From Octopus sinensis (lineage: Eukaryota), in NCBI RefSeq assembly GCF_006345805.1, contig NC_043013.1, positions 16,678,001 to 16,742,000 of the forward strand: 64,000 nt of DNA, read 5' to 3'. A model generated the notes under the pieces. It saw nothing but the letters and a program-made list of their open reading frames with translations. It was not told the DNA's origin and ran no database searches. Positions 747 to 48,400 of this stretch are shown piece after piece. Position 1 is the first letter of the stretch, and each line of letters begins with the position of its first letter. The position numbers were made by a program, and so were the translations under genes.

Positions 747-3581
747 CAGGGGTCTCCAAAGTACGGCCCGCCAAGGTTTTTGAACCGGCCCGCCAAGCTG
801 TCCTCTAAAATTATAAAACAAATGTCGAAAAACAAGCCTTGCCGAAATCATACAAAAACAAATATACTTTACACCCCTTTTAATACGTTTGACAAATATA
901 GTACAGCAAATAGACGCAAGACGACGCTAATTGATTTGCCATCAATTAATGTCTTTAAATTGCGCCGGCGAATTAAAAATTTATACACTAAACTTTAGTG
1001 TAAATATAGGTTCTTTTCCACTCCCCCCGTTTTAACTGACCCATCAGAACCACCATAAAATGAATTAACTTCGCTATGGAGCTACCTATCATTCATCTTA
1101 GATAATAGGCGATTGTCAGTGAGATGGATGGTGCTGCTTACAATGAAGCAGAGATTCAATTTCTAGCTTTATTGATGTCGCAGAAAAGTCAACCTATTCC
1201 GTCAACTGTCGAGAGAGCAGATACGACAAGTATGACGTTAATAAAAGTCCCGTGCCTAGTATAATAAAAGAAGACAATATCGATTTATCGATGTTACCTA
1301 CATCTCACGAGCGATGAATAGAGAGGGTTGAGCCTGACGTTGTGTGGTGGTTTCTAATCCTGGTGCAGTCGCCAATCAGCGTGGAGTAAAGTTCGATGCG
1401 CATTCCGTCAGTCAGCACAGACTTGGCATTTTCGTTGTGCACAAGTGTGAGTCATTTGTCGTCGTCGCTGCCGAAGTGAATGCACGTATCGAGTGACCTG
1501 TGAATATTGTTTTTACTTGTTTCGTCCTTTTACATATATCGTCGAGCAAAATCTGTCGACCCATGGTAAAAATGTCAGCTCAAGGAAGAAAACGAAAAAT
1601 CGACTCTGAGTGTAGAGTTTTTAAGGAACAATGGAACATAGACTATTTTGTCATAGAGTCAAACAACAAGGCACTATGCATTATATGCACCGACACAATT
1701 GCAGTACTTAAAGAGTACAATATTCGGAGACATTATGAAAAAAAGCATTCATCACAGTACTACCAATTCATTGGACAGCTACGTAAAGAGAAATTTGACA
1801 AATTAAAGAAGAATTTATCATCAATGCAGTTTGTTTTCAAGAAGAAGGCTGTAGAAAAAGAGAGAGCAACAAGAGCAAGCTTCCATGTTGCTAACCTTTT
1901 GGCGAAGAAAGGTAAGCCATTTACAGATGGTGAACTTATTAAAAAGTGCTTGAATGAGGTAGCTAAGGAAATGTGTCCAGAAAACGTAGATTTATTTTCC
2001 GCAATTAGTCTTTCTGCGAACACTGTTGCTCGTAGGGTTGAACATATTGAAAGAAATATTAAATCACAGCTAAAAGACAAAGCCAACAAGTTTGTATGCT
2101 TTTCTGTTGCACTTGATGAGTCAATTGATGTATCAGACACATCCCAATTGTTATTGTTCATCAGAGGAATAAATGCCAATTTTGAGATTACTGAGGAACT
2201 TGTATCTGTGCACAGCATGCATGGAACAACAACAGGCATAGATATTTTTAGAGAAGTGGAAAAGTCAGTGGCTGAGTATAATTTGGAATGGAAAAAACTA
2301 AAATGCATAACAACAGATGGTGGCAGAAATATGTGTGGAACCAAAAAGGGCTTAGTTGGGCAAATTAACAAAGTAATTGAGAATTCCGGTGGATTGAAAC
2401 CTTTGGTATTGCATTGTATTCTTCATCAGCAAGCACTGTGTGGAAAGCATCTTGATTTATCATCTGTATTAGATCCTGTGATTTCCACTGTTAACTACAT
2501 AAGATCTCATGGACTCAAACATCGCCAATTTCGTGATTTCTTGGAGGAAATGAATGCTGAGTTTCCAGACCTACCTTACTATACTTCAGTAAGATGGCTT
2601 AGCTATGGAAAAATTCTGGCTAGATTTTTTGAGCTTCGAACTGAAATTGAAATATTTTTAAATGAGAAAAACCATTCACAGGTGTTGCTCAAAGACAGTG
2701 AATGGCTCTGGAAATTAGCATTTTCAGCCGATTTAACTATGCATCTCAATGATTTCAACCTACGGATACAAGGTGAAACTTCACTCATCTGTGATTTGTA
2801 CTCAAAGGTGAAAGCTTTTCGTAAGAAATTAATACTATTTGAAAGTCAGTTAACAAGAAGCTGCTTTACTCATTTTTCACGATGTGACAAATAAGACAGA
2901 AGCTGCCACTCCATTTCCAAACTTGTTTGCTCAAGATGTCATTTTAGCTTTGAAACAACAGTTTGAAGAACGTTTTTCTGATCTTGATGCATGTTCTTCA
3001 AAACTAAGAATTTTTGAAAATCCATTTAACTCTGTTATTGGAGACTTACCTTCTGAGTTACAAATGGAAGTTATTGATTTGCAATCCAATGACATCCTGA
3101 AGGACAAATATAAAGAGGGAAATTTGATTGAATTCTACAAATGCCTTCCATCCGACCAATTTCTTCATTTAAGGAGGTTTGCCTGTGAATTCATTTCAGT
3201 TTTTGGCACCACATATTTGTGTGAGAAGACTTTTTCAAAGATGAAATACACAAAATCCTGCTACAGATCACAATTGTCTGATGAACATTTAAATGCATTG
3301 CTTGTTATTGGAACCACTCATTTTGAACCTCAGTTGGACAAAATTTTGTCAGAAATGAAACAATTTCATGTTTCCCCTATTGATCAAAGTTAAAAAAAAC
3401 ATGTTAATTGTTACTGATATTATATACATTGTGATTATGTACTGAATAAATAACCTTTTTTAATTATTAATTCACTATTTATTTATATTATTTTGGTAAA
3501 TAAATAATTTAGAACCTTGGCCCCCGTAGCTTTAAAAATTCAGCAATGTGGCCCTCCGCTGGAAAACTTTGGAGACCCCTG
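747..3581 (+). mobile_element. Full-length hAT DNA transposon, Buster/Charlie/SPIN-like (2835 bp)
   Basis: Perfect 16-bp TIRs: CAGGGGTCTCCAAAGT (747-762) and ACTTTGGAGACCCCTG (3566-3581). Perfect 8-bp TSD CCCTAAGC (739-746, 3582-3589) with central TA, typical of the Buster group. Contains an internal transposase. Confidence 0.96.
1563..3393 (+). pseudogene. hAT transposase (SPIN/GTF2IRD2-like, about 600 aa) broken by one frameshift near 2885-2894
   Basis: KRKIDSECRVFKEQW N-terminus, BED-like C..C/H..H, catalytic LDES and TTDGG, HCILHQQAL and VRWLS in ORF 1500-2894. The C-terminal YLCEKTFS..KSCYRSQLSDEHL continues in ORF 2884-3393 in another frame. Confidence 0.92.
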
Positions 3582-3599
3582 CCCTAAGCAATCAGCCAC

Positions 3600-4140
3600 A
3601 GCTCCCTATTTGATGTATGTGTGTCTTTTAAGATTGTCTTTGGAATGCCTGGTTGATTAGATCTCACATCCATACACCAGCACAGTTAAGACATGCTTGA
3701 AAGACCACGACTTTTGTTGCTTCTTTGATATTTGAATGTGACCAGAGCTTCGATTCAAGTTTTCTAAATGTTTCACAGGCCCCAGAAAATCTATAACTAA
3801 CTTCTTCATCAAATGTATTAAATCTAGATAATATACTACCAAGGTAGACGAATGTATCCACAACTTTCTACTCTTGTTGTGTGCTGATGGAGGGATATAT
3901 GACTTGTTTGTGCTGGTTGTAGCACAACTACAGTCTTCTTAAGACTGGTTGTAAGTCCAAATTCATCGCACATCAATCCATCAAGAGCTGCAGGCCTTCC
4001 TCAGAGGGGCTTACAAGATTGCAATCATTAGTTTAAAGAAGATCATGAATGAGAACCATGAAAGTTTCTGTTACAACAGTGAAATGACAGATGTTGAAAA
4101 GCTTTCCTATTGTTCCATAATGCATGTAGATATCAGCACA
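3600..4140 (-). mobile_element. Degenerate RTE-clade LINE reverse transcriptase fragment
   Basis: VDTFVYLGSILSR..DEEVSYR..FRKLESKLW..TKVVVF..LVYGCE is the post-RT motif typical of RTE ORF2; the fragment is frameshifted. Confidence 0.7.
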
Positions 4141-4249
4141 TTTATGTACAAAGGCTTGCAAGATTACATACGTTCATGCACACACACACATTGGATTACC
4201 TAAGATATATGTTTGGTTTTGTTAAGCAAAAATAAGACACAGAGTGATT

Positions 4250-4640
4250 TATTCAATCAATGATAAAATTACCATTTTGTCCCAGCGTCTTCTACCATCT
4301 GGTAGGCAGATACATTATTCCCTGCTCAAATAATTTCCTGTCTTTACTGGCAAAAAAAACTCCTCAAGGTGAATTTTTACGTTCAATGAAATTCAAAGAA
4401 GCAAGGTTGAGCAAATATGGACGATACAGCTAAACTTCCCATCTAAGCACTGTAACTTCTGTTGCACCTGAAAAGAAATGTTCAGTCTTGCATTGTCATG
4501 ATGAAAGACAATGCCCTTATGATTTGTGAGTGCTGGATGCTTCTAGTGGATCACTGCATTTAATTTATCCAGCTGGGCACTGTACACATCTGAATTGATG
4601 GTCCTGTCCCTTGAAAGAAGCACATAAAAGACAACACCCT
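4250..4640 (-). mobile_element. Degenerate mariner transposase fragment
   Basis: The reverse strand reads VYSAQLDKLNAVIH*KHP..KGIVFHHDNAR, the mariner HDNARPH motif, with stops. Confidence 0.7.
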
Positions 4641-4644
4641 TTCA

Positions 4645-4921
4645 TTTAGTTTAGTTAGTTAGTTAGTTAGTTTTTTGGCTCAAAAAGCAAAAAGCAAGGC
4701 CATGTAGGGGGACATGGAGTTATGTACAGGGTGGTGTTCATGTAAAGAGTTCAGGCCATTTCTGGTCAAGAGAGACTTTGAACCGAGCAGTCGTCGGCAT
4801 CTTCACTATCTCGTCCGGCAGCTTATTCCACGGATCCGCAACCCAGACGGAGAAAGCCCCTCTCCTTCGATTGAGATGAAATCGTCGCAGATAGAGCTTT
4901 TCGGAGTGACCCCGCAGTTGT
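4645..4921 (-). mobile_element. 5'-truncated CR1-clade LINE 3' end with (TAAC)n tail
   Basis: LRGHSEKLYLRRFHLNRRRGAFSV.VADPWNKLP motif followed by a (TAAC)n tail; closely similar to 29461-29890. Confidence 0.85.
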
Positions 4922-5812
4922 AATGCAATATATACACACACATATATACATATAAAGAATACAAAAAATGGTACAAAAACGCTACAGGTGACAACAAACC
5001 ATCCAGACAGATGATACAAAAAGGGACAAGAAAAAACAAGGATGGGTCATTTGTAGTTTTCTCTTCTCAGTCGAGTTCCAGATCATCTTTGCAGTTTCAG
5101 CTGGTTATACTTGAGACTGCTCCAATCTGGCCAACCCCAAAGAAAATCTAAGCTAAGAGTACTAGATTCTTTGGAAGAAAGCAGCAAATGTATACGAAAA
5201 CAAGGATGGAAAAAAAATGGAGAAATGGTACACAAATACAAGTGCAAACAACAGGACATTAACAACAGGTGTCTTTCGACTAAGGATGAATTACAAAATA
5301 AAAGAAGGAAAATGCATACACTTTACATGGTTTTAGTATATTTTATATTGTGTTTGTCGACTGGTTTCACTTTCGCTAATTATGACATTAAAATTATTGT
5401 AATTTCATATTTTCTTAAGAAGATTTTGGTCCATGTTTTGTGTGAAGAAGTTTGTCAAGGAATTACAATAATTTCAATGTCATAATTAGTTAAAATGAAA
5501 CCAGTTGACAAATACAATATGAAGTATATTAAAAAATATATTAAAGTGTATGCATTTTTCCTTCTTTTATTTTATATATATATACTTTGCATATTTATAC
5601 ACACACACAATGGATTATTTGATAATCTGAGAAGCAAGCTGTTGTCTCTTGCCTAATATGGAAAATGGTGACAGATTTATGGATTGATTTTTTAGATCAA
5701 TCTTATTAGGTGTCTGAATCGGGGATTGTAGTGGGAGCAGTTTTAGTTGTGGTGGTGGTAGTGCTGGTAATTGTGGAGTGCTGGTGGTGGTACTAGTGAT
5801 GATAGTGATGAT

Positions 5813-6042
5813 GGCGGTGAGCTGGCAGCATCGTTAGCATGCCGGGCGAAATGCCTAGCGGTATTTCGTCTGCGTTACGTTGTGAGTTCAAATTCCGCCG
5901 AGGTCGACTTTGCCTTTCATCCTTTCGGGGTCGATGAATTAAGTACCAGTTACGCACTGGGGTTGATGTAATCGACTTAATACCTATGTCTGTCCTTGTT
6001 TGTCCCCTCTGTGTTTAGCCCCTTGTGGGTAATAATGAAATA
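5813..6042 (+). mobile_element. SINE family A (tRNA-like head, Nin/Deu-like core GTCGACTTTGCCTTTCATCCTTTCGGGGTCGA)
   Basis: Recurs more than 10 times in the window. Flanked by the direct repeat GGTACTAGTGATGATAGT (5789-5806, 6043-6060). Confidence 0.85.
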
Positions 6043-22460: not shown

Positions 22461-22568
22461 TATATATATATGTGTGTTTATATATATATGTGTGTGTATA
22501 TATGTATATATATGTATATATATATATGTGTATATATATGTATATATATATATATGTGTGTGTAGATG

Positions 22569-22599
<31 letters not shown>

Positions 22600-22631
22600 A
22601 TATATGTGTGTGTATATATGTGTGTATATAT

Positions 22632-22669
<38 letters not shown>

Positions 22670-22676
22670 GTGTATA

Positions 22677-22767
<91 letters not shown>

Positions 22768-22774
22768 GTGTATA

Positions 22775-22815
<41 letters not shown>

Positions 22816-22875
22816 ATATATATATATGTGTATATATATGTGTGTATATATATATATATATACATGTGTATATAT

Positions 22876-22915
<40 letters not shown>

Positions 22916-22972
22916 GTGTGTGTATATATATATATACATATATATATATATACATATATATATATGTGTATA

Positions 22973-23016
<44 letters not shown>

Positions 23017-23134
23017 ATATATTACATATATATATATATGTGTGTATATGTATGTATATATATATATATATGTGTGTGTATATGTATGTATATATATATA
23101 TATGTGTGTGTATATATGTATATATATATATATA
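22461..23134. repeat. About 670-bp compound (TA)n/(TG)n microsatellite
   Basis: Almost purely TA/TG/CA dinucleotides; this tract is the source of the Y/I/C/V-rich spurious ORFs. Confidence 0.97.
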
Positions 23135-36659: not shown

Positions 36660-36693
<34 letters not shown>

Positions 36694-36774
36694 CAATTGC
36701 AGCGTGGAAGGTGTTTATAAGCCATTTAAGAAACACACAAAAGCCGTTCGATTCACTTCAACATTTAAGTTTAA

Positions 36775-36824
36775 TTTGTCAAAATATTTTCGTCGCTAAA
36801 ATCCGCGACCTGTTCACTGACAAA
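36775..36824 (-). ncRNA. Putative minimal type I hammerhead ribozyme, G3:C8 variant, in a Penelope-like fragment (36695-36905)
   Basis: Minus strand reads UUUGUCA-GUGAACA-G-GUCGC-loop-GCGAC-GAAA-AUAUUU-UGACAAA. Confidence 0.55.
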
Positions 36825-37043
36825 AATCCGTGCTGCATCTGAGCTGCAATTGTTTTCGTTTCAGCACACGATCTCAGATCAAATTACTTGCTATGCGAGT
36901 ACATCTCTCTATATATATATAAATTCCGCCGAGGTCGACTTTGCCTTTCATCCTTTCGGGGTCGATAAATAAAGTACCAGTTACGCACTGGGGCCGATAT
37001 AATCGACTTAATCCCTTTGTTTAGCCCCTTGTGGGCAATAAAG

Positions 37044-37677: not shown

Positions 37678-40481
37678 GTATGTTTTTTTTTTTTTTTTTT
37701 TTTTACTATGATTCCATTTGTACTGTAGGTAATTACAGTCCTATATTTGACTCCAGCCTTCATCCATGGGCATATGGCGTAGTGGTTAAGAGTGCGGGCT
37801 ACTAACCCCAAGATTCCGATTTCGATTCCAGGCAGTGACCCAAATAATAATAATAATAATGATAATAGTAATAACATTATTAGGAATGAGAACCCAGGTT
37901 CAAAATTCTCCCAGAACACCTGATTAAGGTTGGAGAGTACATCAGCCGAAATGTGTTAATAACAAACAAGATGAGGACAAATATCCATCAAATGTAAATA
38001 ATGTAAGTAATTATCATGTGAGACACATAAGCAAATATAACAAAGTAAGTTGAAGGTTGTGAGTTCATTTCTTACTAGGGCATAGTTTTTGTCTAAACCT
38101 TGCTAGCTTGAGAGAATGGACATAAAGTGGTGGTGGTGGCGGCAGCAGTCATGATGATGACTGAGGTTAGACAGTGTCCATTCAAACCCTTCTCTAGACT
38201 GGTGAGATTGATGTGATCAATGATCCCAGATTTTTGCAAGTGATATGCTCAATAATCCCCTTCACTCTGATTGATGAGATTATTGTAACTGATGGGTCCA
38301 TCTCTCAGACTGGTGAGTTGATGTGACTGATGATCCCTTCTCCAGACTAATGAATGGTATGATTGATGTTACCCTTCCTGGCTGATGAGATTGATGTGAC
38401 CTATTTCTTTATTGCCCACAAGGGGCTAAACATAGAGGGTACAAACAAGGACAGACATAGGTATTAAGTCGATTACATCGACCCCAGTGCGAAACTGGTA
38501 CTTATTTAATCAACCCCAAAAGGATGAAAGGCAAAGTCGACCTCGGCGGAATTTGAACTCAGAACGTAACGGCAGACGAAATACGGCTACGCATTTCGCC
38601 CGGCATGCTAACGTTTCTGCCAGCTCGCCGCCTTGAGATTGATGTGACCGATGACCCTCATCTTCTAACTGGTGAGGTTGTTGCGATTGAACTCTTCTTG
38701 CAGACTGATGAGATTGATGATCCTCTTTTCCAGACTTACGGGGATTAATGTAGTTGTTCTCCTCTCCTCCAGACTGGTAAGATTAATGTGATTTACATTC
38801 ACCTTTAACACTAGGTTGGTGTCTGTGAGGTAAACCTGGAGAGGATAAGAATTCCCCAAAGTTTATATCAATTCTGGGAAGGAAGGACTGGAGAAAATGT
38901 ATTGGGCTGGTTGTGGTGGTGGGGAAATAGATGGCACACAGGCCATTGTAATAACGATAGAAGAGACAGAAGAAAGAAACCTCAGAGGGTTAGTTTCAAA
39001 CCAGTAATTTATTTAATCAGCCCCAAAAGTACAAAAGGTAAAGTTGACTGCAGTTGAATTTGAACTCAGAATGTAATTTACTGAAACAAATACAGCAGGG
39101 TATTTGTTTTGTTGATGCTCTAACAATCCTGCCACTCTTATCTAAACCAGTAAAATTGTACTGACACGACCCCTTAAATTGCACTAATACAACCCAGTAA
39201 TATATTGTGTTCTAATTTAGGCATGAGACTAGCAGTTCAGAGGGGATCAGCGGTTGTAGTTAGTATGTGCCCATCAATCCCAGTACTATACTGCTAAATT
39301 ATTTAATCAACCCTACAAGGATGAAAGACAAAGTTGACCGCAGTGTGATTTGAGCTCAGAACCTAAAGAGATGGAACAATTGCCACAAGGCATTTTTTCT
39401 TCCAGTGTTCTAATTAAGTGCCAACCCAACCCAATTTTGCACTGATATCACCTATAATATTGCATTGATATGACCCAGTAATATCTCACTGATTTAACCG
39501 ACAAATATTTCAACAATGTGACTCCACCACTCAGCTGTGAAGTACTTATATGATGCACTTTCATTGCAACGTCCGTGTTTTCTAAAGTTAAATAGGTTGT
39601 TTGAAATTTGATTTAGATAAATACTAGCAGTATCGCCCGGCATTGCTCGGGTTTGTTTCGACCCTTTAGAATTGGAATTTTTGAAAAGTAAAAACTTTGC
39701 ATTATGTAGCTTGTTATTCTCTTTAAGTGAACATTTTTCTGGTTGAAATACACTGAAAAATGGTGGCACAGCAGTAAAAAAATCGTAAAAAAATAGGGAT
39801 TTTCATAGAAAAAAAGCACCTTTTTAATGTAAATAATTTTTGGTGTTAACATGGTCCGATTTGGATTTTTTCTTCTACGGAAGGAAGAGCAAGCCTTCTT
39901 CTATCATACTCTCGATTTTGGTCGACTTGCGCCGCAGGGTCTCGGAGGAGATAGTGTTAGTTGAAGGCTATCAAACCTGCCATACACAGACAACTTCAGC
40001 TTTATATATATGGAGATTAACAGTTGAATGATTAAATATAAACCAGAAAGACTAGTATGAAGTTCAAGTGAATGTAGTGTTCCATTTCTTTTAAAAATGC
40101 ACAACTTAATGTACGTTGAAATAGCAACACTTACTGCTGAAAAGGCAAGAATATTATTATAGGTGCAGACATAGCCTTGAGGTTAAGAAATTCACTTGTG
40201 ACTCACTTGCGACCCACATGGTTTCAGGTTCAGTCCTACTGCATGGTACCTTGGGCAAGTATCTTCTACTAGAGCCCTTTGCCGATCAAAGCCTTGTGAA
40301 GGTAGGAAGAAACTGAAAGAAGCCCCAGCGCTGGTGTTGCTACCATCCAGCTGTAAAAACTATGACAGAACAAACAATGGAGTCTGATGCTGCCCCTGGC
40401 CTTATCAGTTCCAGTTAAATCATCCAAGCCATGTTAGCATGGAAAACAAGACATTAAATGATAATGATACACACATGCACG

Positions 40482-40517
<36 letters not shown>

Positions 40518-40990
40518 TGTATAAGTGTTTGTGGATGTGACTGTGTCTTCTTGTATTGACATCATGCAATAGTTGTAAAGGAGTGTTACCATCATACAGC
40601 TGGTGCCTTCCATTTCATGTCTTCCATAAAAAAATGTCCAGCTTGGGAAAAGTATATTACTCTGCTTGGAAGGTGAGGTTCATAACTAGAAAAAAAATAT
40701 CCAGCTGTGGATGTATATACCTCAGCAAAATTATCACTATCTATGCCAGTGCTGCCTGACTGGTCCCGTGCCAGTGGCATGTAAAAAGCACCACTCAGGC
40801 ATGGTTGATGCCAGTACTGCCTGACTGACCTTCGTGCTGGTAGCATATAAAAAGCACCTACTACACTCTCAGAGTTATTGGCATTAGGAACGGCATCCAG
40901 CTGTAGAAACTTTGCCAGATTGGATTGGAGCCTGGTGCAGCCTTCTGGCTTGCCACCATGGAAAGCAGACATTAAACGATGACAATGATG

Positions 40991-41025
<35 letters not shown>

Positions 41026-42766
41026 TATTTTTTATATATATACTAGCAGTATCGCCCGGCGTTGCTCGGGTTTGTAAGGGAAATAATTATATAAGCATTT
41101 TTAGAGATGTAAAGTATAATAGCCATCTCAATATGGCTAACCACAAAGGGGGAGGGGTGTTACTGTAGCTTTTTACGTTCTGAGATTTAATAATAAATTT
41201 AGAGAGTTACTTCCCTTATATATGTCAAAAATGGATTAAAAATGGGAAAAATTGATGGTAAATTTTTTTTTAAATCGTAGACTCATCGTAGACGCGCGCT
41301 AATACCCAGACGGTCTCGATATGAATCACGACTATAAGATACCCGGTTTTGGTTAAACTGCACCGCAAAATGTGGGAGTAGTTAGGAATCTAAATCGTAG
41401 GAGACAGACACACAACCTCACTTTTATATATAAAGATTTCCTCTATTTACATAATATTGAGGTCTCTTTCTTTCTTTTGTTATCTTACTGTTTTTACCAA
41501 TATACATATATATATATATATATATATAAATATATATATAGTTACAGAGATGTACTTGCATAGCAAGTGACTTGATCTGAGATCGTGTGCTGGAACGAAA
41601 ACAGTTGCAGCGTTGAAGGTGTTTATAAGCCATTTAAGAAACACACAAAAACCGTTAGATTCACTTCAACATTTAAATTTAATTTGTCAAAATATTTTCG
41701 TCGCTTTGAGACCGCGACCTGTTAGCACAATATTTTTGTCAGTGAACAGGTCGCGGTCTCAAAGCGACGAAAATATTTTGGCAAATTAAATTTAAATGTT
41801 GAAGTGAATGTAACGGTTTTTGTGTGTTTCTTAAATGGCTTAGAAACACCTTCCAGGCTGCAATATATATATACACACATATATATATATGTATGTATGT
41901 ATGTATGTGTGTATATGTGTATGCATGTATGTGTGTGTGTGTGCGTGTCTGTGCTTGTGATTGTCCTCCACCACTGCTTGACAACGAATGTTGGTTTGTT
42001 TACATCCCTGTCACCTAGTGGTTTGACAAAGGAAACAGATAGAATAAGTACAATGCTTACAAAAATAAAACTGGAGTTGATTCATTAAACTACAATTCTT
42101 CAAGGCATTGCCCCAGCATGGCCACAGACCAATGGCTGGAAAAAGCAGAAGAATAAAAGAATACATTCTCTGCTTTGGTCTTATGTTCAAGACATGAGAA
42201 AGCTTGAGTTTACATGAGAAGGCCTAACAGACCTGGTAGAAACAGCAGCCAAATCTCCCTCAAATCACACCTTACTGTATTATGTATGTATATATATATG
42301 AGCCAATGAGGGGGACCTCTACATGGTAGCTAGACCTGGTAGAAATAGCAGCCAAATTTCCCCCAAATCACACCTTACTGTCTTATCTATGTATATATGT
42401 ATGTATGAGCCTATGAGGGAGACCCCTACATGGCAGCTAGACCTGGTAGAAATAGCAGCCAAATTTCCCCCAAATCACACCTACTGTCTTATCTATGTAT
42501 ATATGTATGTATGAGCCTATGAGGGAGACCCCTACATGGCAGCTAGACCTGGTAGAAATAGCAGCCAAATTTCCCCCAAATCACACCTTACTGTCTTATC
42601 TATGTATATATGTATGTATGAGCCTATGAGGGAGACCCCTACATGGCAGCTAGACATGGTAGAAATAGCAGCCAAATCTCCCTCAAATCACACCTTACTG
42701 TCTTATCTTTCTGCTACTTGGATATAGGTGTTATATTTGTAGTAAAAAACTTTCCTGTCACACACT

Positions 42767-42804
<38 letters not shown>

Positions 42805-45387
42805 CACACACACACACACACGCGCACACACACCCACTCACACACACGCACGTTAGCTTACAATTTTATTTATATATTTGCGTGTCAATGTGTTGAAAGA
42901 GGAAGTGGGAGGCTGAGTGAAAGAATCACTCACTACAGTAAGTCAATTACTTTCATTTTATTCGTTGCCCACTGTGTGTGTGCGTTTGCGTGTGCTGTAA
43001 ACCAGACTAAGAAAAGCATTTGACACACACACCAGAATGTGAGTTTTCTGTAAATTTTGCTTAATTGGAGTTTAAATTTTAAAAACTGGACCTGGCATGA
43101 CGCGATGCATTGTACTCTTAAAAATGCAAGGTAAATTGTAATTGAAGAAATCCTATATTGTAGATTTGTATAACTCCCAAAGGGAGGCAGATAAAATCTG
43201 CCTTTTATAATAAGAGATATCTCTTATTATAAAAGGCAGATTTTATCTGCCTCCCTTTGGGAGTTATACAAATCTACAATATAGGATTTCTTCAATTACA
43301 ATTTACCTAGCAGTTTTAAGAGTACAATGCATCGCGTCATGCCAGGTCCAGTTTTTAAAATTTAAACTCCAATTAAGCAAAATTTACAGAAAACTCACAT
43401 TCTGGTGTGTGTGTCAAATGCTTTTCTTAGTCTGGTTTACAGCACACGCAAACGCACACACACAGTGGGCAACGAATAAAATGAAAGTAATTGACTTACT
43501 GTAGTGAGTGATTCTTTCACTCTGCCTCCCACTTCCTCTTTCAACACATAGACACGCAAATATATAAATAAAATTGTAAGCTACCGTGCGTGTGTGTGAG
43601 TGGGTGTGTGTGGGTGTGCGCATGTGTGTGTGTGTGTGTGACGGTGCGTGTGTGTGTGTGTGTGTGTGTGCGTGAGTGTGTGACAGGAAAGTTTTTTACG
43701 ACGAATATAACACCTATATCCAAGTAGCAGAAAGATAAGACAGTAAGGTGTGATTTGAGGGAGATTTGGCTGCTATTTCTACCATGTCTAGCTGCCATGT
43801 AGGGGTCTCCCTCATAGGCTCATACATACATATATACATAGATAAGACAGTAAGGTGTGATTTGGGGGAAATTTGGCTGCTATTTCTACCAGGTCTAGCT
43901 GCCATGTAGGGGTCTCCCTCATAGGCTCATACATACGTATATACATAGATAAGACAGTAAGGTGTGATTTGGGGGAAATTTGGCTGCTATTTCTACCAGG
44001 TCTAGCTGCCATGTAGGGGTCTCCCTCATAGGCTCATACATACATATATACATAGATAAGACAGTAAGGTGTGATTTGGGGGAAATTTGGCTGCTATTTC
44101 TACCAGGTCTAGCTACCATGTAGAGGTCCCCCTCATTGGCTCATATATATATACATACATAATACAGTAAGGTGTGATTTGAGGGAGATTTGGCTGCTGT
44201 TTCTACCAGGTCTGTTAGGCCTTCTCATGTAAACTCAAGCTTTCTCATGTCTTGAACATAAGACCAAAGCAGAGAATGTATTCTTTTATTCTTCTGCTTT
44301 TTCCAGCCATTGGTCTGTGGCCATGCTGGGGCAATGCCTTGAAGAATTGTAGTTTAATGAATCAACTCCAGTTTTTTTTTGTAAGCATTGTACTTATTCT
44401 ATCTGTTTCCTTTGTCAAACCACTAGGTGACAGGGATGTAAACAAACCAACATTCGTTGTCAAGCAGTGGTGGAGGACAATCACAAGCACAGACATGCAC
44501 ACACATACATGCATACACATATACACACATACATACATACATACATATATATATGTGTGTATATATATATTGCAGCCTGGAAGGTGTTTCTAAGCCATTT
44601 AAGAAACACACAAAAACCGTTACATTCACTTCAACATTTAAATTTAATTTGCCAAAATATTTTCGTCGCTTTGAGACCGCGACCTGTTCACTGACAAAAA
44701 TATTGTGCTAACAGGTCGCGGTCTCAAAGCGACGAAAATATTTTGACAAATTAAATTTAAATGTTGAAGTGAATCTAACGGTTTTTGTGTGTTTCTTAAA
44801 TGGCTTATAAACACCTTCAACGCTGCAACTGTTTTCGTTCCAGCACACGATCTCAGATCAAGTCACTTGCTATGCAAGTACATCTCTGTAACTATATATA
44901 ATTTATATATATATATATATATATGTATATTGGTAAAAACAGTAAGATAACAAAAGAAAGAAAGAGACCTCAATATTATGTAAATAGAGGAAATCTTTAT
45001 ATATAAAAGTGAGGTTGTGTGTCTGTCTCCTACGATTTAGATTCCTAACTACTCCCACATTTTGCGGTGCAGTTTAACCAAAACCGGGTATCTTATAGTC
45101 GTGATTCATATCGAGACCGTCTGGGTATTAGCGCGCGTCTACGATGAGTCTACGATTTAAAAAAAAATTTACCATCAATTTTTCCCATTTTTAATCCATT
45201 TTTGACATATATAAGGGAAGTAACTCTCTAAAATTTATTATTAAATCTCAGAACGTAAAAAGCTACAGTAACACCCCTCCCCCTTTGTGGTTAGCCATAT
45301 TGAGATGGCTATTATACTTTACATCTCTAAAAATGCTTATATAATTATTTCCCTTACAAACCCGAGCAACGCCGGGCGATACTGCTA

Positions 45388-45422
<35 letters not shown>

Positions 45423-48400
45423 TATAGCTGTGTGATAAGAAGCTTGCTTCCCAACCACATGCTTCTGGATTCAGTCCCACTGCATGGAACCTTAAGTAAG
45501 TGTCTTCTACTATAGTGTCAGGCTGACCAAATCCTTGTGAGTGGATTTAGTTGATGGAAACTGAAAGAAGCCCATTGTGTATCTCTATATATATAAATGG
45601 CAAAATGTCTGTCTGTGTGTGTGTCCTTTATACAAATCCACAATTTTTCAGTTAGAGGGCTCGCTCTTTCTATAGTCATTCAAAACCGTCCAAGGGTGGT
45701 CGTGCACATCTTTTACATTTCCCCAGTCATTAAAAGCCATTAAAAAATCAATAGAAGTGACATTTTTGTGAATTTTCTATCCAAAACCCAATCAAAATGC
45801 CCAGAACTTGATACGCCAATTGAATGCCAGCTAGCTGTATGTGATTGGTCGGAGATTTGGACAGTACTCGTGTTTATGTGCGCTCGCACGCAGCTGTATA
45901 TGCATGCACTAGCACTATGACCCGGCATTGTCAGGTCATAGTACTAGTATATATGTATATAGCATCAATACTAACGAGACTAAACAACAATAACAACAAC
46001 CACAAATATTCTAAACTTAAAGACCCAAAGCAATGAATTATAATAGATGTCTCTTATTTTCCCTAAGAATATTTTCTTTAACATTTTATGATTTAGTTAT
46101 TTATATTTTTTTTCTTTTTGTGTGTGTACATGTATGTTTTTTGTTGTTGTTTCAGTTGGCTGGCACGGACAGATCCTGCTGATGTGGCCCGTGTAGAGAG
46201 ACGTACTGTGATAGCAACAGAAGCCCAAAGAGACACAATACCAATTCCTAAAACTGGAGTCAAAGGTCAGCTTGGTTACTGGATGGATCTGGAAGACATG
46301 GACACCGAACTCAACATGAGATTCCCAGGATGTATGCGAGGTACCTTGCCAAATTTGTATTTGAGATTGAAGTATGCTTCCCGATCACATGGTTTCGGGT
46401 TCAGTCCCACTGTGTGGCACCTTGGGCCACACTACTTCTGCTATAGCCTGAGATTGAACAAAGTCTTGGGAATGGATTTAGCAGATGGAAACTGAAAGAA
46501 GCCTCTATATGTACAGGATTTCATGCATTGTGAGCAATAAAGCAATAAGACGGTCTTACAATGCCAGATTAAATCAAAAGAGATCCGTCGCTACCAGGCA
46601 TCTTTTCTGAAGCTCAGCATTTAAAAATCGATCATAATTTTTTTAATAATGGCTCTACAGTCACCAAAAATACAATGATGTCTATTACTGAGGTGGACAG
46701 TGTTCTGTTTGCGGTAGTGTTCTACACATCTCTCCCAATGATATTTTTTTTATCTGTGATTTCATCTCCAGTGAGGCTGGCTTGCTTCAAACTGGCTCAG
46801 ATCCTTTTGATGTCTTTTGTACATACTCCTGAAATTCCCTCTTGTAGTGACTATCTGAATACTCTCTGTAAGCTGTACCCTATATTCTTTGGCACAGTTC
46901 CTGACAGTTTGTCTTAAAATTTAGTATAATTTTATAATTTTTGCTCAATTTGAGAGGAAGGGCAAGTCACTTACATTGACCCTAGTACTTGGTACTTTAT
47001 TTTATCAACTTTGAAAGGATGAAAGGCAAAGTTTACCTTGGTGGAATTTGAATGCAGAACATTATGTCAGAACTACCACTAAGCATTTCGTCCAACACTC
47101 AAACAATTCTGCTTTTGCACCATATTTTAATTTGTTTTAAAATTAGTATCAAATCAAAACAATCCCAAATGTTATTTGTTTAAAAAATTTTTTTTTTATT
47201 TCCTCTTAATTCCAAACTGATTTCCATTGACTTCTTTCAGGTCGTACCATGTACGTAATCCCATTCAGCATGGGTGCAGTAGGTGGACCATTATCTAAAA
47301 TTGGAATTGAACTCACAGATTCAGCCTATGTCGTAGCCAGCATGCGCATCATGACCAGAATGGGCCAGGCAGCCCTCGATGCATTAGGAACAGGCAGTTT
47401 TGTCAAATGTTTACATTCCGTCGGTCAACCACTTCCAGGTAAGAAATACTTAAATTTTGCTTCTCTGCAACCATCCTACCATCTTATTGACCACAATAAA
47501 ACACATCCCATTCTAAACTGGTGAATAATTAATGAGGAACACCATATTTCATTATTAAACGATAATATTCTACAAAGTATATTAAACTCTTTATAGTCAA
47601 TACTGTGTTCTACTGTGTTAGCAGTGCTATTAAATAACTTGTTATGGTTGTCTCTATAGATTTTCTATAGAAATTATAGCCAGCACTGATTTGTTATGAT
47701 ATTTTGTATGGATTGGATGTGGTGCTGATGAAGGAGCAAGAATTCCTGAAATATGGCTTATACACCCATTACCCATTTTTATCATCTTTGATCTCGTCTA
47801 CTTTAGGTATACTCAGACACAAAACATTGTAACAAATGGGTGCTGGCTATAATTTCTATAGAAAATCTATAGAAATAACTGCAAGAAGTAAACTTGTGAC
47901 TGCAATGTGTCCACCTTAAATTGTCTACCATCTAAATAAATTTCATTTAATGACCCTTAAACTGATCATCATGTGACACAACCCTGTAATGTAGCTCTGC
48001 CCATCAGATTACTTCTTGATGTGGCATCTTCCTCTCTGCCTAAACTGACCACCTGTAATATGATCGCTTGCCCCTTGACAAACCACCTTGTGATGTGAGT
48101 AGTTTCCCACTCAGACCACTTTATGATGTGACCTTCCCTTCTTTGCTAAACTGACCACTATGTAATGTGACCCCCTAAACTAATTGTCACCTCCCTATTT
48201 GTAACCCTTCAACTGAGCACAACTATAAACTGTTCAGCACTCAATCCTTTATGTTTTTTTTTTTATCTTTCAGCTAGCACACCGTCCCATTGGCCTTGTA
48301 ACCCCAAACTGACCTTAATTGCCCATATCCCAGACAGAAATGAAATTTGTTCATTTGGAAGTGGCTATGGAGGAAATTCCTTACTGGGCAAGAAATGTTT

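Follow-up and report, generated by a model that had tools for sequence, protein, structure and literature searches.

The choice and joining of the target is the least understood step of Helitron transposition. Among described systems, those close to the octopus elements considered here include canonical Helitrons (Helitron1) such as Helraiser/Helibat1 (PMC4778049, PMC5876387). The available parts of these papers give a 5' TC, a 3' hairpin followed by CTAG, and insertion between A and T without duplication. The octopus family resembles them in all these points, as well as in its AT-rich 3' preference, its RepHel partner and its precise CTAG|TC junctions. According to the accessible sections of one paper, RepHel starts by nicking the left end and moves copies via double-stranded circles having precise tail-head junctions (PMC5876387). 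As for target choice, Helraiser prefers AT-rich sequence, most strongly 3' of the insert, and no clustering around donors was seen in 701 retranspositions (PMC4778049). In contrast, octopus copies gather 5' of resident family members in either orientation, now and then next to a sister copy.

Neighbouring Helitrons have been described before. At the maize r1 locus, one pair of adjacent dissimilar Helitrons has a zero spacer (Du et al. 2008, PMC2267711); there, the abstract calls the pair head-to-head and the text head-to-tail. Compared to this single head-to-tail case, the octopus genome holds 33 unlike zero-spacer junctions together with spaced and inverted pairs, and the census shows that tail-tail pairs are lacking. 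In Fusarium oxysporum, the accessible text describes one FoHeli4 insertion 2 bp upstream of the 5' end of a second copy, together with self-insertion models (PMC5148889). The insertion of Helitrons near or inside other Helitrons is credited to Yang and Bennetzen 2009 in passages of PMC12477314 and PMC3288121. In these reports, as in octopus, family members cluster and nest, and composite elements with several termini occur. Their available portions nevertheless show no end-specific count, head-to-head class or full-length palindromes, and the Fusarium elements are non-canonical (Helitron2-like), unlike the canonical octopus family. The accessible parts of PMC13286980, PMC3789558, PMC9071541, PMC6927752 and PMC13282606 hold nothing on end-specific insertion. 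In the literature searched, from which most subscription journals were absent, no head-to-head Helitron palindromes or 5'-side insertion rule were found, and Yang and Bennetzen 2009 may already report a bias of orientation or of ends. The clustering of Helitrons near Helitrons is already published; what the octopus family adds to it is the family-wide accumulation at resident heads.

Two inverted copies of a composite Helitron in an intron

The window, i.e., the whole stretch of 64,000 nt analysed, contains zero N. Its right part is filled by a multi-exon PEPCK (GTP) gene (37223-62011, + strand). Pfam places the N-terminal domain of PEPCK upstream of the palindrome and the C-terminal domain downstream, and the intermediate exons, located by motif, follow in order along the window. 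At its other end, transposase-like reading frames lie in two pieces at 1497-3393 (+ strand; Spin-doc zinc finger and a weak DUF4371 match) and form a putative hAT/SPIN-like element. The palindrome and its surroundings comprise the following features.

37678..46155, + strand: PEPCK (GTP) intron containing the palindrome; flanking exons join in frame (KYEN-C-WLARTDP)
41033..41042, no strand: left remnant of the (TA)n target
41043..43217, - strand: left copy, a non-autonomous composite Helitron of 2,175 bp, with its 5' TC at 43217 and its CTAG end at 41043
43218..43219, no strand: TA spacer, host bases supplying the A before each TC
43220..45388, + strand: right copy, the same Helitron as the left arm, 2,169 bp
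45389..45419, no strand: right remnant of the (TA)n target

Since consecutive PEPCK exons on either side join in frame, both flanks belong to one locus. As claimed by the first-pass annotation, both arms are copies of one composite Helitron, inverted with respect to each other about a central TA; the element is non-autonomous. Aligned from the centre outward, the arms match in 2,149 columns and differ by 11 substitutions; a further 26 columns are gaps, mostly due to microsatellite length. The centre reads GA|TA|TC, with A|TC at the start of both arms, and CTAG|T closes each arm at 41043 and 45388. Arm similarity is lost ~10 bp past the outer ends, within the TA run, and the flanks beyond (TA)n are unrelated, as had been stated. 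Likewise, excision of both arms on paper leaves (TA)5 + TA + (TA)15, a single unbroken tract. The mismatch quoted in the annotation, AAAATGCAAG at 43121 versus the mirror AAACTGCTAG, is also present. The substitutions had been described as scattered, but they are clustered, with 9 of the 11 inside the 485 bp adjoining the centre (binomial P ~5e-5, for a boundary picked post hoc). The palindrome is real in the assembly, and its reading as Helitrons is confirmed. Elsewhere in the window, a degenerate (TA)n/(TG)n tract of 674 bp (22461-23134) is without Helitron insertion.

The unit is made of a family head, a 107-bp array, a dispersed-repeat fragment, a foldback piece and a terminal short Helitron. 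Its modules are given for the right arm.

43220..43496, + strand: family head, ~245-277 bp, common to all subfamilies (mirror 42941-43217)
43234..43252, + strand: 8-bp hairpin within the head (z = -2.8 against shuffles)
43733..44213, + strand: 107-bp tandem repeat, 4.5 copies (mirror 42229-42708)
44250, + strand: allele private to both arms (mirror 42192; 2 matches genome-wide versus 415 for other alleles)
44279..44525, + strand: dispersed-repeat fragment, putatively SINE-like, with ~70% identity to at least 6 other window sites
44564..44904, + strand: captured foldback/MITE-like piece, which contains an inverted repeat of 259 bp
44994..45388, + strand: terminal module, itself a short Helitron (A|TCTTTATATATAAAAG ... 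CTAG), which supplies the 3' end
45361..45376, + strand: subterminal GC hairpin with a 6-bp stem, 12 nt before the CTAG end

The copy number of the 107-bp repeat differs among family members, and the type of the terminal module is also found standing alone. A shorter free relative of the foldback piece lies at 36664-36925 with TA runs on both sides. The subterminal GC hairpin is weak when taken alone (z -1.45; 19 of 200 shuffles fold equally well) and is kept in the autonomous element. By eye, the unit has only short, simple-repeat-rich frames, and a coding role was rejected.

Family copies with unrelated upstream flanks all begin TCTCTTATTATAAAAGG, and in other sampled loci the CTAG end is followed by unrelated flanks, which makes for a sharp 3' boundary. 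An A precedes TC in 19 of 19 unselected heads, and a T follows in 14 of the 15 tails found. A nested copy divides its host at A|T with no visible duplication, bearing in mind that a 2-bp duplication would be invisible in TA runs. The genome holds 2,791 exact matches to the head 17-mer and 25,494 to the tail 15-mer, the tail being common to short elements as well; the subfamily of the palindrome numbers ~417 copies. An autonomous partner (G000:C5:105384969-105391587, 6,619 bp) has the same first 20 nt and 26 of the last 28 nt. Rep-side and helicase domains are both present in its 1,556-aa frame (PF14214, E 1e-55; PF05970, E 1e-64). Among 14 RepHel candidates, this combination of both family ends occurs in one and the exact head in three. 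The termini thus behave as Helitron ends elsewhere in the genome, and the TC and CTRR ends, 3' hairpin, A|T target and RepHel partner with the same ends bear out the annotation of a composite Helitron. The identification of the unit as a canonical non-autonomous element of this kind is supported.

Other classifications were considered. Helentron/Helitron2 elements, with T|T-type targets and (asymmetric) terminal inverted repeats, do not fit the A|T target and the TC and CTAG ends. A rolling-circle concatemer would consist of identical units joined head-to-tail, whereas the palindrome is inverted. Read whole, the 4.35 kb resemble a foldback/MITE-type TIR transposon, i.e., long terminal inverted repeats between TA dinucleotides. 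However, the private allele occurs only twice genome-wide, both times in this palindrome, which has no full counterpart elsewhere, and it is as single A|TC...CTAG|T copies that the unit moves.

Relatedness of the arms

The arms were compared at non-repetitive sites with a sample consisting of the 30 subfamily copies that come first in genome order. None of 1,051 distal sites distinguishes the arms; among 351 random pairs, the minimum is 3 differences and the median 12. Both arms also carry the sub-lineage alleles 223G, 274G and 324A. Their status as a sister pair is supported. The private allele, found exactly twice genome-wide, and the identity of the distal sites fit the re-insertion of a copy beside its own 5' end. 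A local re-insertion in the opposite orientation had been proposed by the first-pass annotation. The sisterhood of the arms agrees with this proposal, but the geometry does not require a self-copy, as 22 of the 24 head-head pairs in the genome join unlike copies.

A pure self-copy does not explain the proximal part of the arms, where 6 of 425 sites differ beside the 0 of 1,051 distal ones. Random pairs have a median of 9 at these sites (210 pairs), and the values for the nearest other copies are 2 and 4. Seven of the nine centre-near substitutions are transversions; two of the nine fall in a (GT)n tract, where the alignment is ambiguous. Unit positions 90 and 94 differ between the arms, matching alleles that segregate in the family.

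Gene conversion between palindrome arms is well known. It is possible, if doubtful, that the same targeting of the head side joined arms from different donors of one sub-lineage and that the distal 1.7 kb was later homogenised by this process. The proximal difference indeed resembles that between independent copies, and the distinct family alleles at positions 90 and 94 point the same way. Such an origin would nevertheless require two rare draws, given that the subfamily has 417 of ~2,791 heads and that the arms share 223G, 274G and 324A. Inverted same-subfamily neighbours at a further locus (L242) are non-sister and have not been homogenised (15 differences in 1,458 sites), and a second full-length palindrome, L128, is without proximal differences.

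Inverted sister neighbours occur at two other loci. L128 (G000:C11:48258599-48266599) is likewise head-to-head, with a spacer of 11 bp, and its copies belong to a 1.17-kb subfamily. Between its arms there are 3 substitutions in 1,166 bp, and 2 of the alleles that they share are missing from 14 other copies. Re-insertion into the donor is clearest at L154 (G000:C3:146361000-146369000, positions 2085-5975), where a full copy is nested inverted within its own sister. This pair has 3 differences in 1,447 sites and shares several alleles missing from an unbiased sample. Another pair with an 88-bp spacer (L141; 8 differences in 1,455 sites) may or may not be sisters and was excluded from the counts.

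Being clustered at the centre, the arm differences are poor evidence against assembly effects, and independent insertion followed by conversion also fits them. For the palindrome at 41043-45388, the likeliest origin, at an even chance, is self-reinsertion, the changes near the centre being later or artefactual. Independent insertion plus conversion remains a minority option, and homogeneity driven by polishing is unlikely.

Neighbouring copies across the genome

The census of junctions was based on exact head and tail matches at most 30 bp apart, plus a band of 31-90 bp. Head-head junctions up to 30 bp number 24, of which 4 have a 2-bp spacer like the present locus and two represent one duplicated event. 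The palindrome geometry, which had been presented as exceptional, is therefore only one of 24 such cases; none of the other 23 loci carries the same arm pair. The arms belong to unlike subfamilies in 22 of the 24, and the match around the centre spans 62-511 bp, mostly 245-280 bp. These 22 are independent insertions, neither fold-backs nor self-copies, mostly from distant donors, and local self-copying as a general cause of head-head junctions is ruled out for them. Although compatible with the A|T rule, a zero spacer occurs in 0 of the 24 head-head junctions, compared to 43 of the head-tail junctions.

Head-tail junctions up to 30 bp amount to 79, i.e., 43 with zero spacer (a coordinate count) and 36 spaced. 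The upstream partner was scored as family if a family head lay within 3 kb, without case-by-case contiguity. By this measure it is family in 30 of the 36 spaced junctions and in 38 of the 40 zero-spacer junctions fetched (of 43), whereas the tail counts predict ~11% in either class. Most of these family pairs join unlike copies (26 of 30 spaced, 33 of 38 zero-spacer), and a single zero-spacer pair is near-identical, with 3 mismatches in 1,870 bp.

Tail-tail junctions up to 30 bp number 12, none with both arms in the family within 4-kb flanks. The 31-90 bp band adds 2 head-head and 9 tail-tail junctions, the latter again without a family pair within the 1.5-kb flanks used there. The ratio of head-head to spaced head-tail to tail-tail family pairs, 24:30:0, fits 1:1:0 (P 0.5). 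A 1:2:1 split is rejected, the probability of 0 tail-tail pairs in 54 being 2e-7. A detection bias against tails was discarded, exact tails being detectable in 21 of 30 copies and exact heads in 17 of 30. Spacer medians are 7.5, 12 and 15.5 bp, with 15.5 for tail-tail and 7.5 for head-head pairs.

These lopsided neighbours suggest that new copies insert at a resident 5' end or immediately upstream of it, mostly in trans. Because one assembly cannot give insertion order, this head-side targeting is read from end geometry alone. At a further locus (L243, G000:C3:142874500-142882500, positions 1321-4998), a copy is inserted inverted 6 bp inside the head of another copy. This event was missed by the junction patterns, so head-side events are undercounted. 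Within the window, ~190 bp separate the right arm from a third Helitron-like element (45582-45947, + strand; A|TC start, hairpin, CTAG|T end). The family tail abuts a TA-rich head resembling that of this element in 4 of 30 sampled loci (L004, L010, L016, L029), which suggests that the heads of other Helitron families may be targets too.

The preferred reading, held with moderate confidence, is that the palindrome consists of two inverted Helitron copies in (TA)n, the second probably placed by RepHel 2 bp upstream of the resident 5' end, which is likely a family-wide target. RepHel bound to or nicking a resident 5' end could turn it, together with the adjoining AT-rich upstream bases, into a preferred target. 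A copy landing a few bases upstream would produce a spaced head-tail pair or, on the other strand, a head-head pair. The incoming copy would usually stem from a distant donor, and an unlike copy then yields a palindrome of only ~0.5 kb from the shared heads. Occasionally the donor would be the resident itself, resulting in a full-length palindrome as at 41043-45388. The chances are about balanced for the wider claim that the family transposase uses resident heads as landing pads, with copies from mostly distant donors inserting at or within ~25 bp upstream in either orientation. Most CTAG|TC junctions would then be serial insertions and not concatemers, and rare self-reinsertion would give rise to kilobase palindromes.

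Alternatively, the resident head may attract nothing. Two unlike copies could arrive together, by mixed circles or two donors per transposase complex, or tail-tail pairs could be equally frequent but lost or unassembled; this is rather unlikely. Circles with precise tail-head junctions, as described in the available part of PMC5876387, could yield unlike dimers without spacer, but mixed circles fail to give the 30 spaced and 24 inverted pairs. A loss of tail-tail pairs would suit the longer TA runs that they enclose, as judged by their larger median spacer. Against this, 21 tail-tail pairs of short elements do assemble, and head-head pairs persist although they are TA-centred palindromes too.

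Effects of the assembly are improbable as an explanation. The second arm could be a fold-back or mis-join, or polishing could have evened out the distal parts of two real copies or introduced errors near their centre. A false palindrome is very unlikely, and there is a limited chance that only the pattern of arm differences is spurious. The differences lie within about one short-read insert length of the centre, where paired reads may map poorly, and the predominance of transversions among them would also suit an artefact. Contigs from 4 read runs on 42855-43250 are a pile-up from the whole family, with no locus-specific piece among the 32 listed of ~6,700, and speak neither for nor against the palindrome. 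A false arm is contradicted by the unrelated flanks, which lie within one intron between in-frame exons, and by arms that end exactly at CTAG|T with outer junctions that are both typical 3' junctions. Furthermore, the 22 junctions of the same form that join unlike copies cannot be fold-backs.

The chance sharing of one (TA)n tract by an AT-loving transposon is largely refuted and very improbable. Its AT asymmetry (95% AT in the 12 bases after the tail, 79% before the head), as for Helraiser, is enough to predict head-head spacers that are short and tail-tail spacers that are long, as observed, but chance would give ~1-2 head-head pairs (0.6-1.9, a crude figure from the TA-tract density of one window) where 24 are seen, partners mostly from the ~22,700 other tails where 30 of 36 are family, and many more tail-tail than head-head pairs where heads exceed tails ~95-fold in the rate per pair of ends. 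The short head-head spacers, though not the counts, can be put down to the AT-rich 3' preference.

Implications for Helitron transposition

The interest of these observations lies in the family-wide accumulation on the head side; the single palindrome is a rare by-product and, as a locus, probably a neutral one. If true, an end-specific rule would link target capture to left-end binding, and it is measurable in one genome. It would also explain composite elements bearing several termini, and it would caution against taking head-to-tail junctions as proof of rolling-circle multimers.

Moreover, insertion beside resident heads would steadily generate near-perfect palindromes, of which this genome has no fewer than 23 independent ones. 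As part of an intron, the palindrome at 41043-45388 would form a 2.17-kb RNA hairpin. Such palindromes are candidates for fragile sites, assembly trouble and long double-stranded RNA inside introns.
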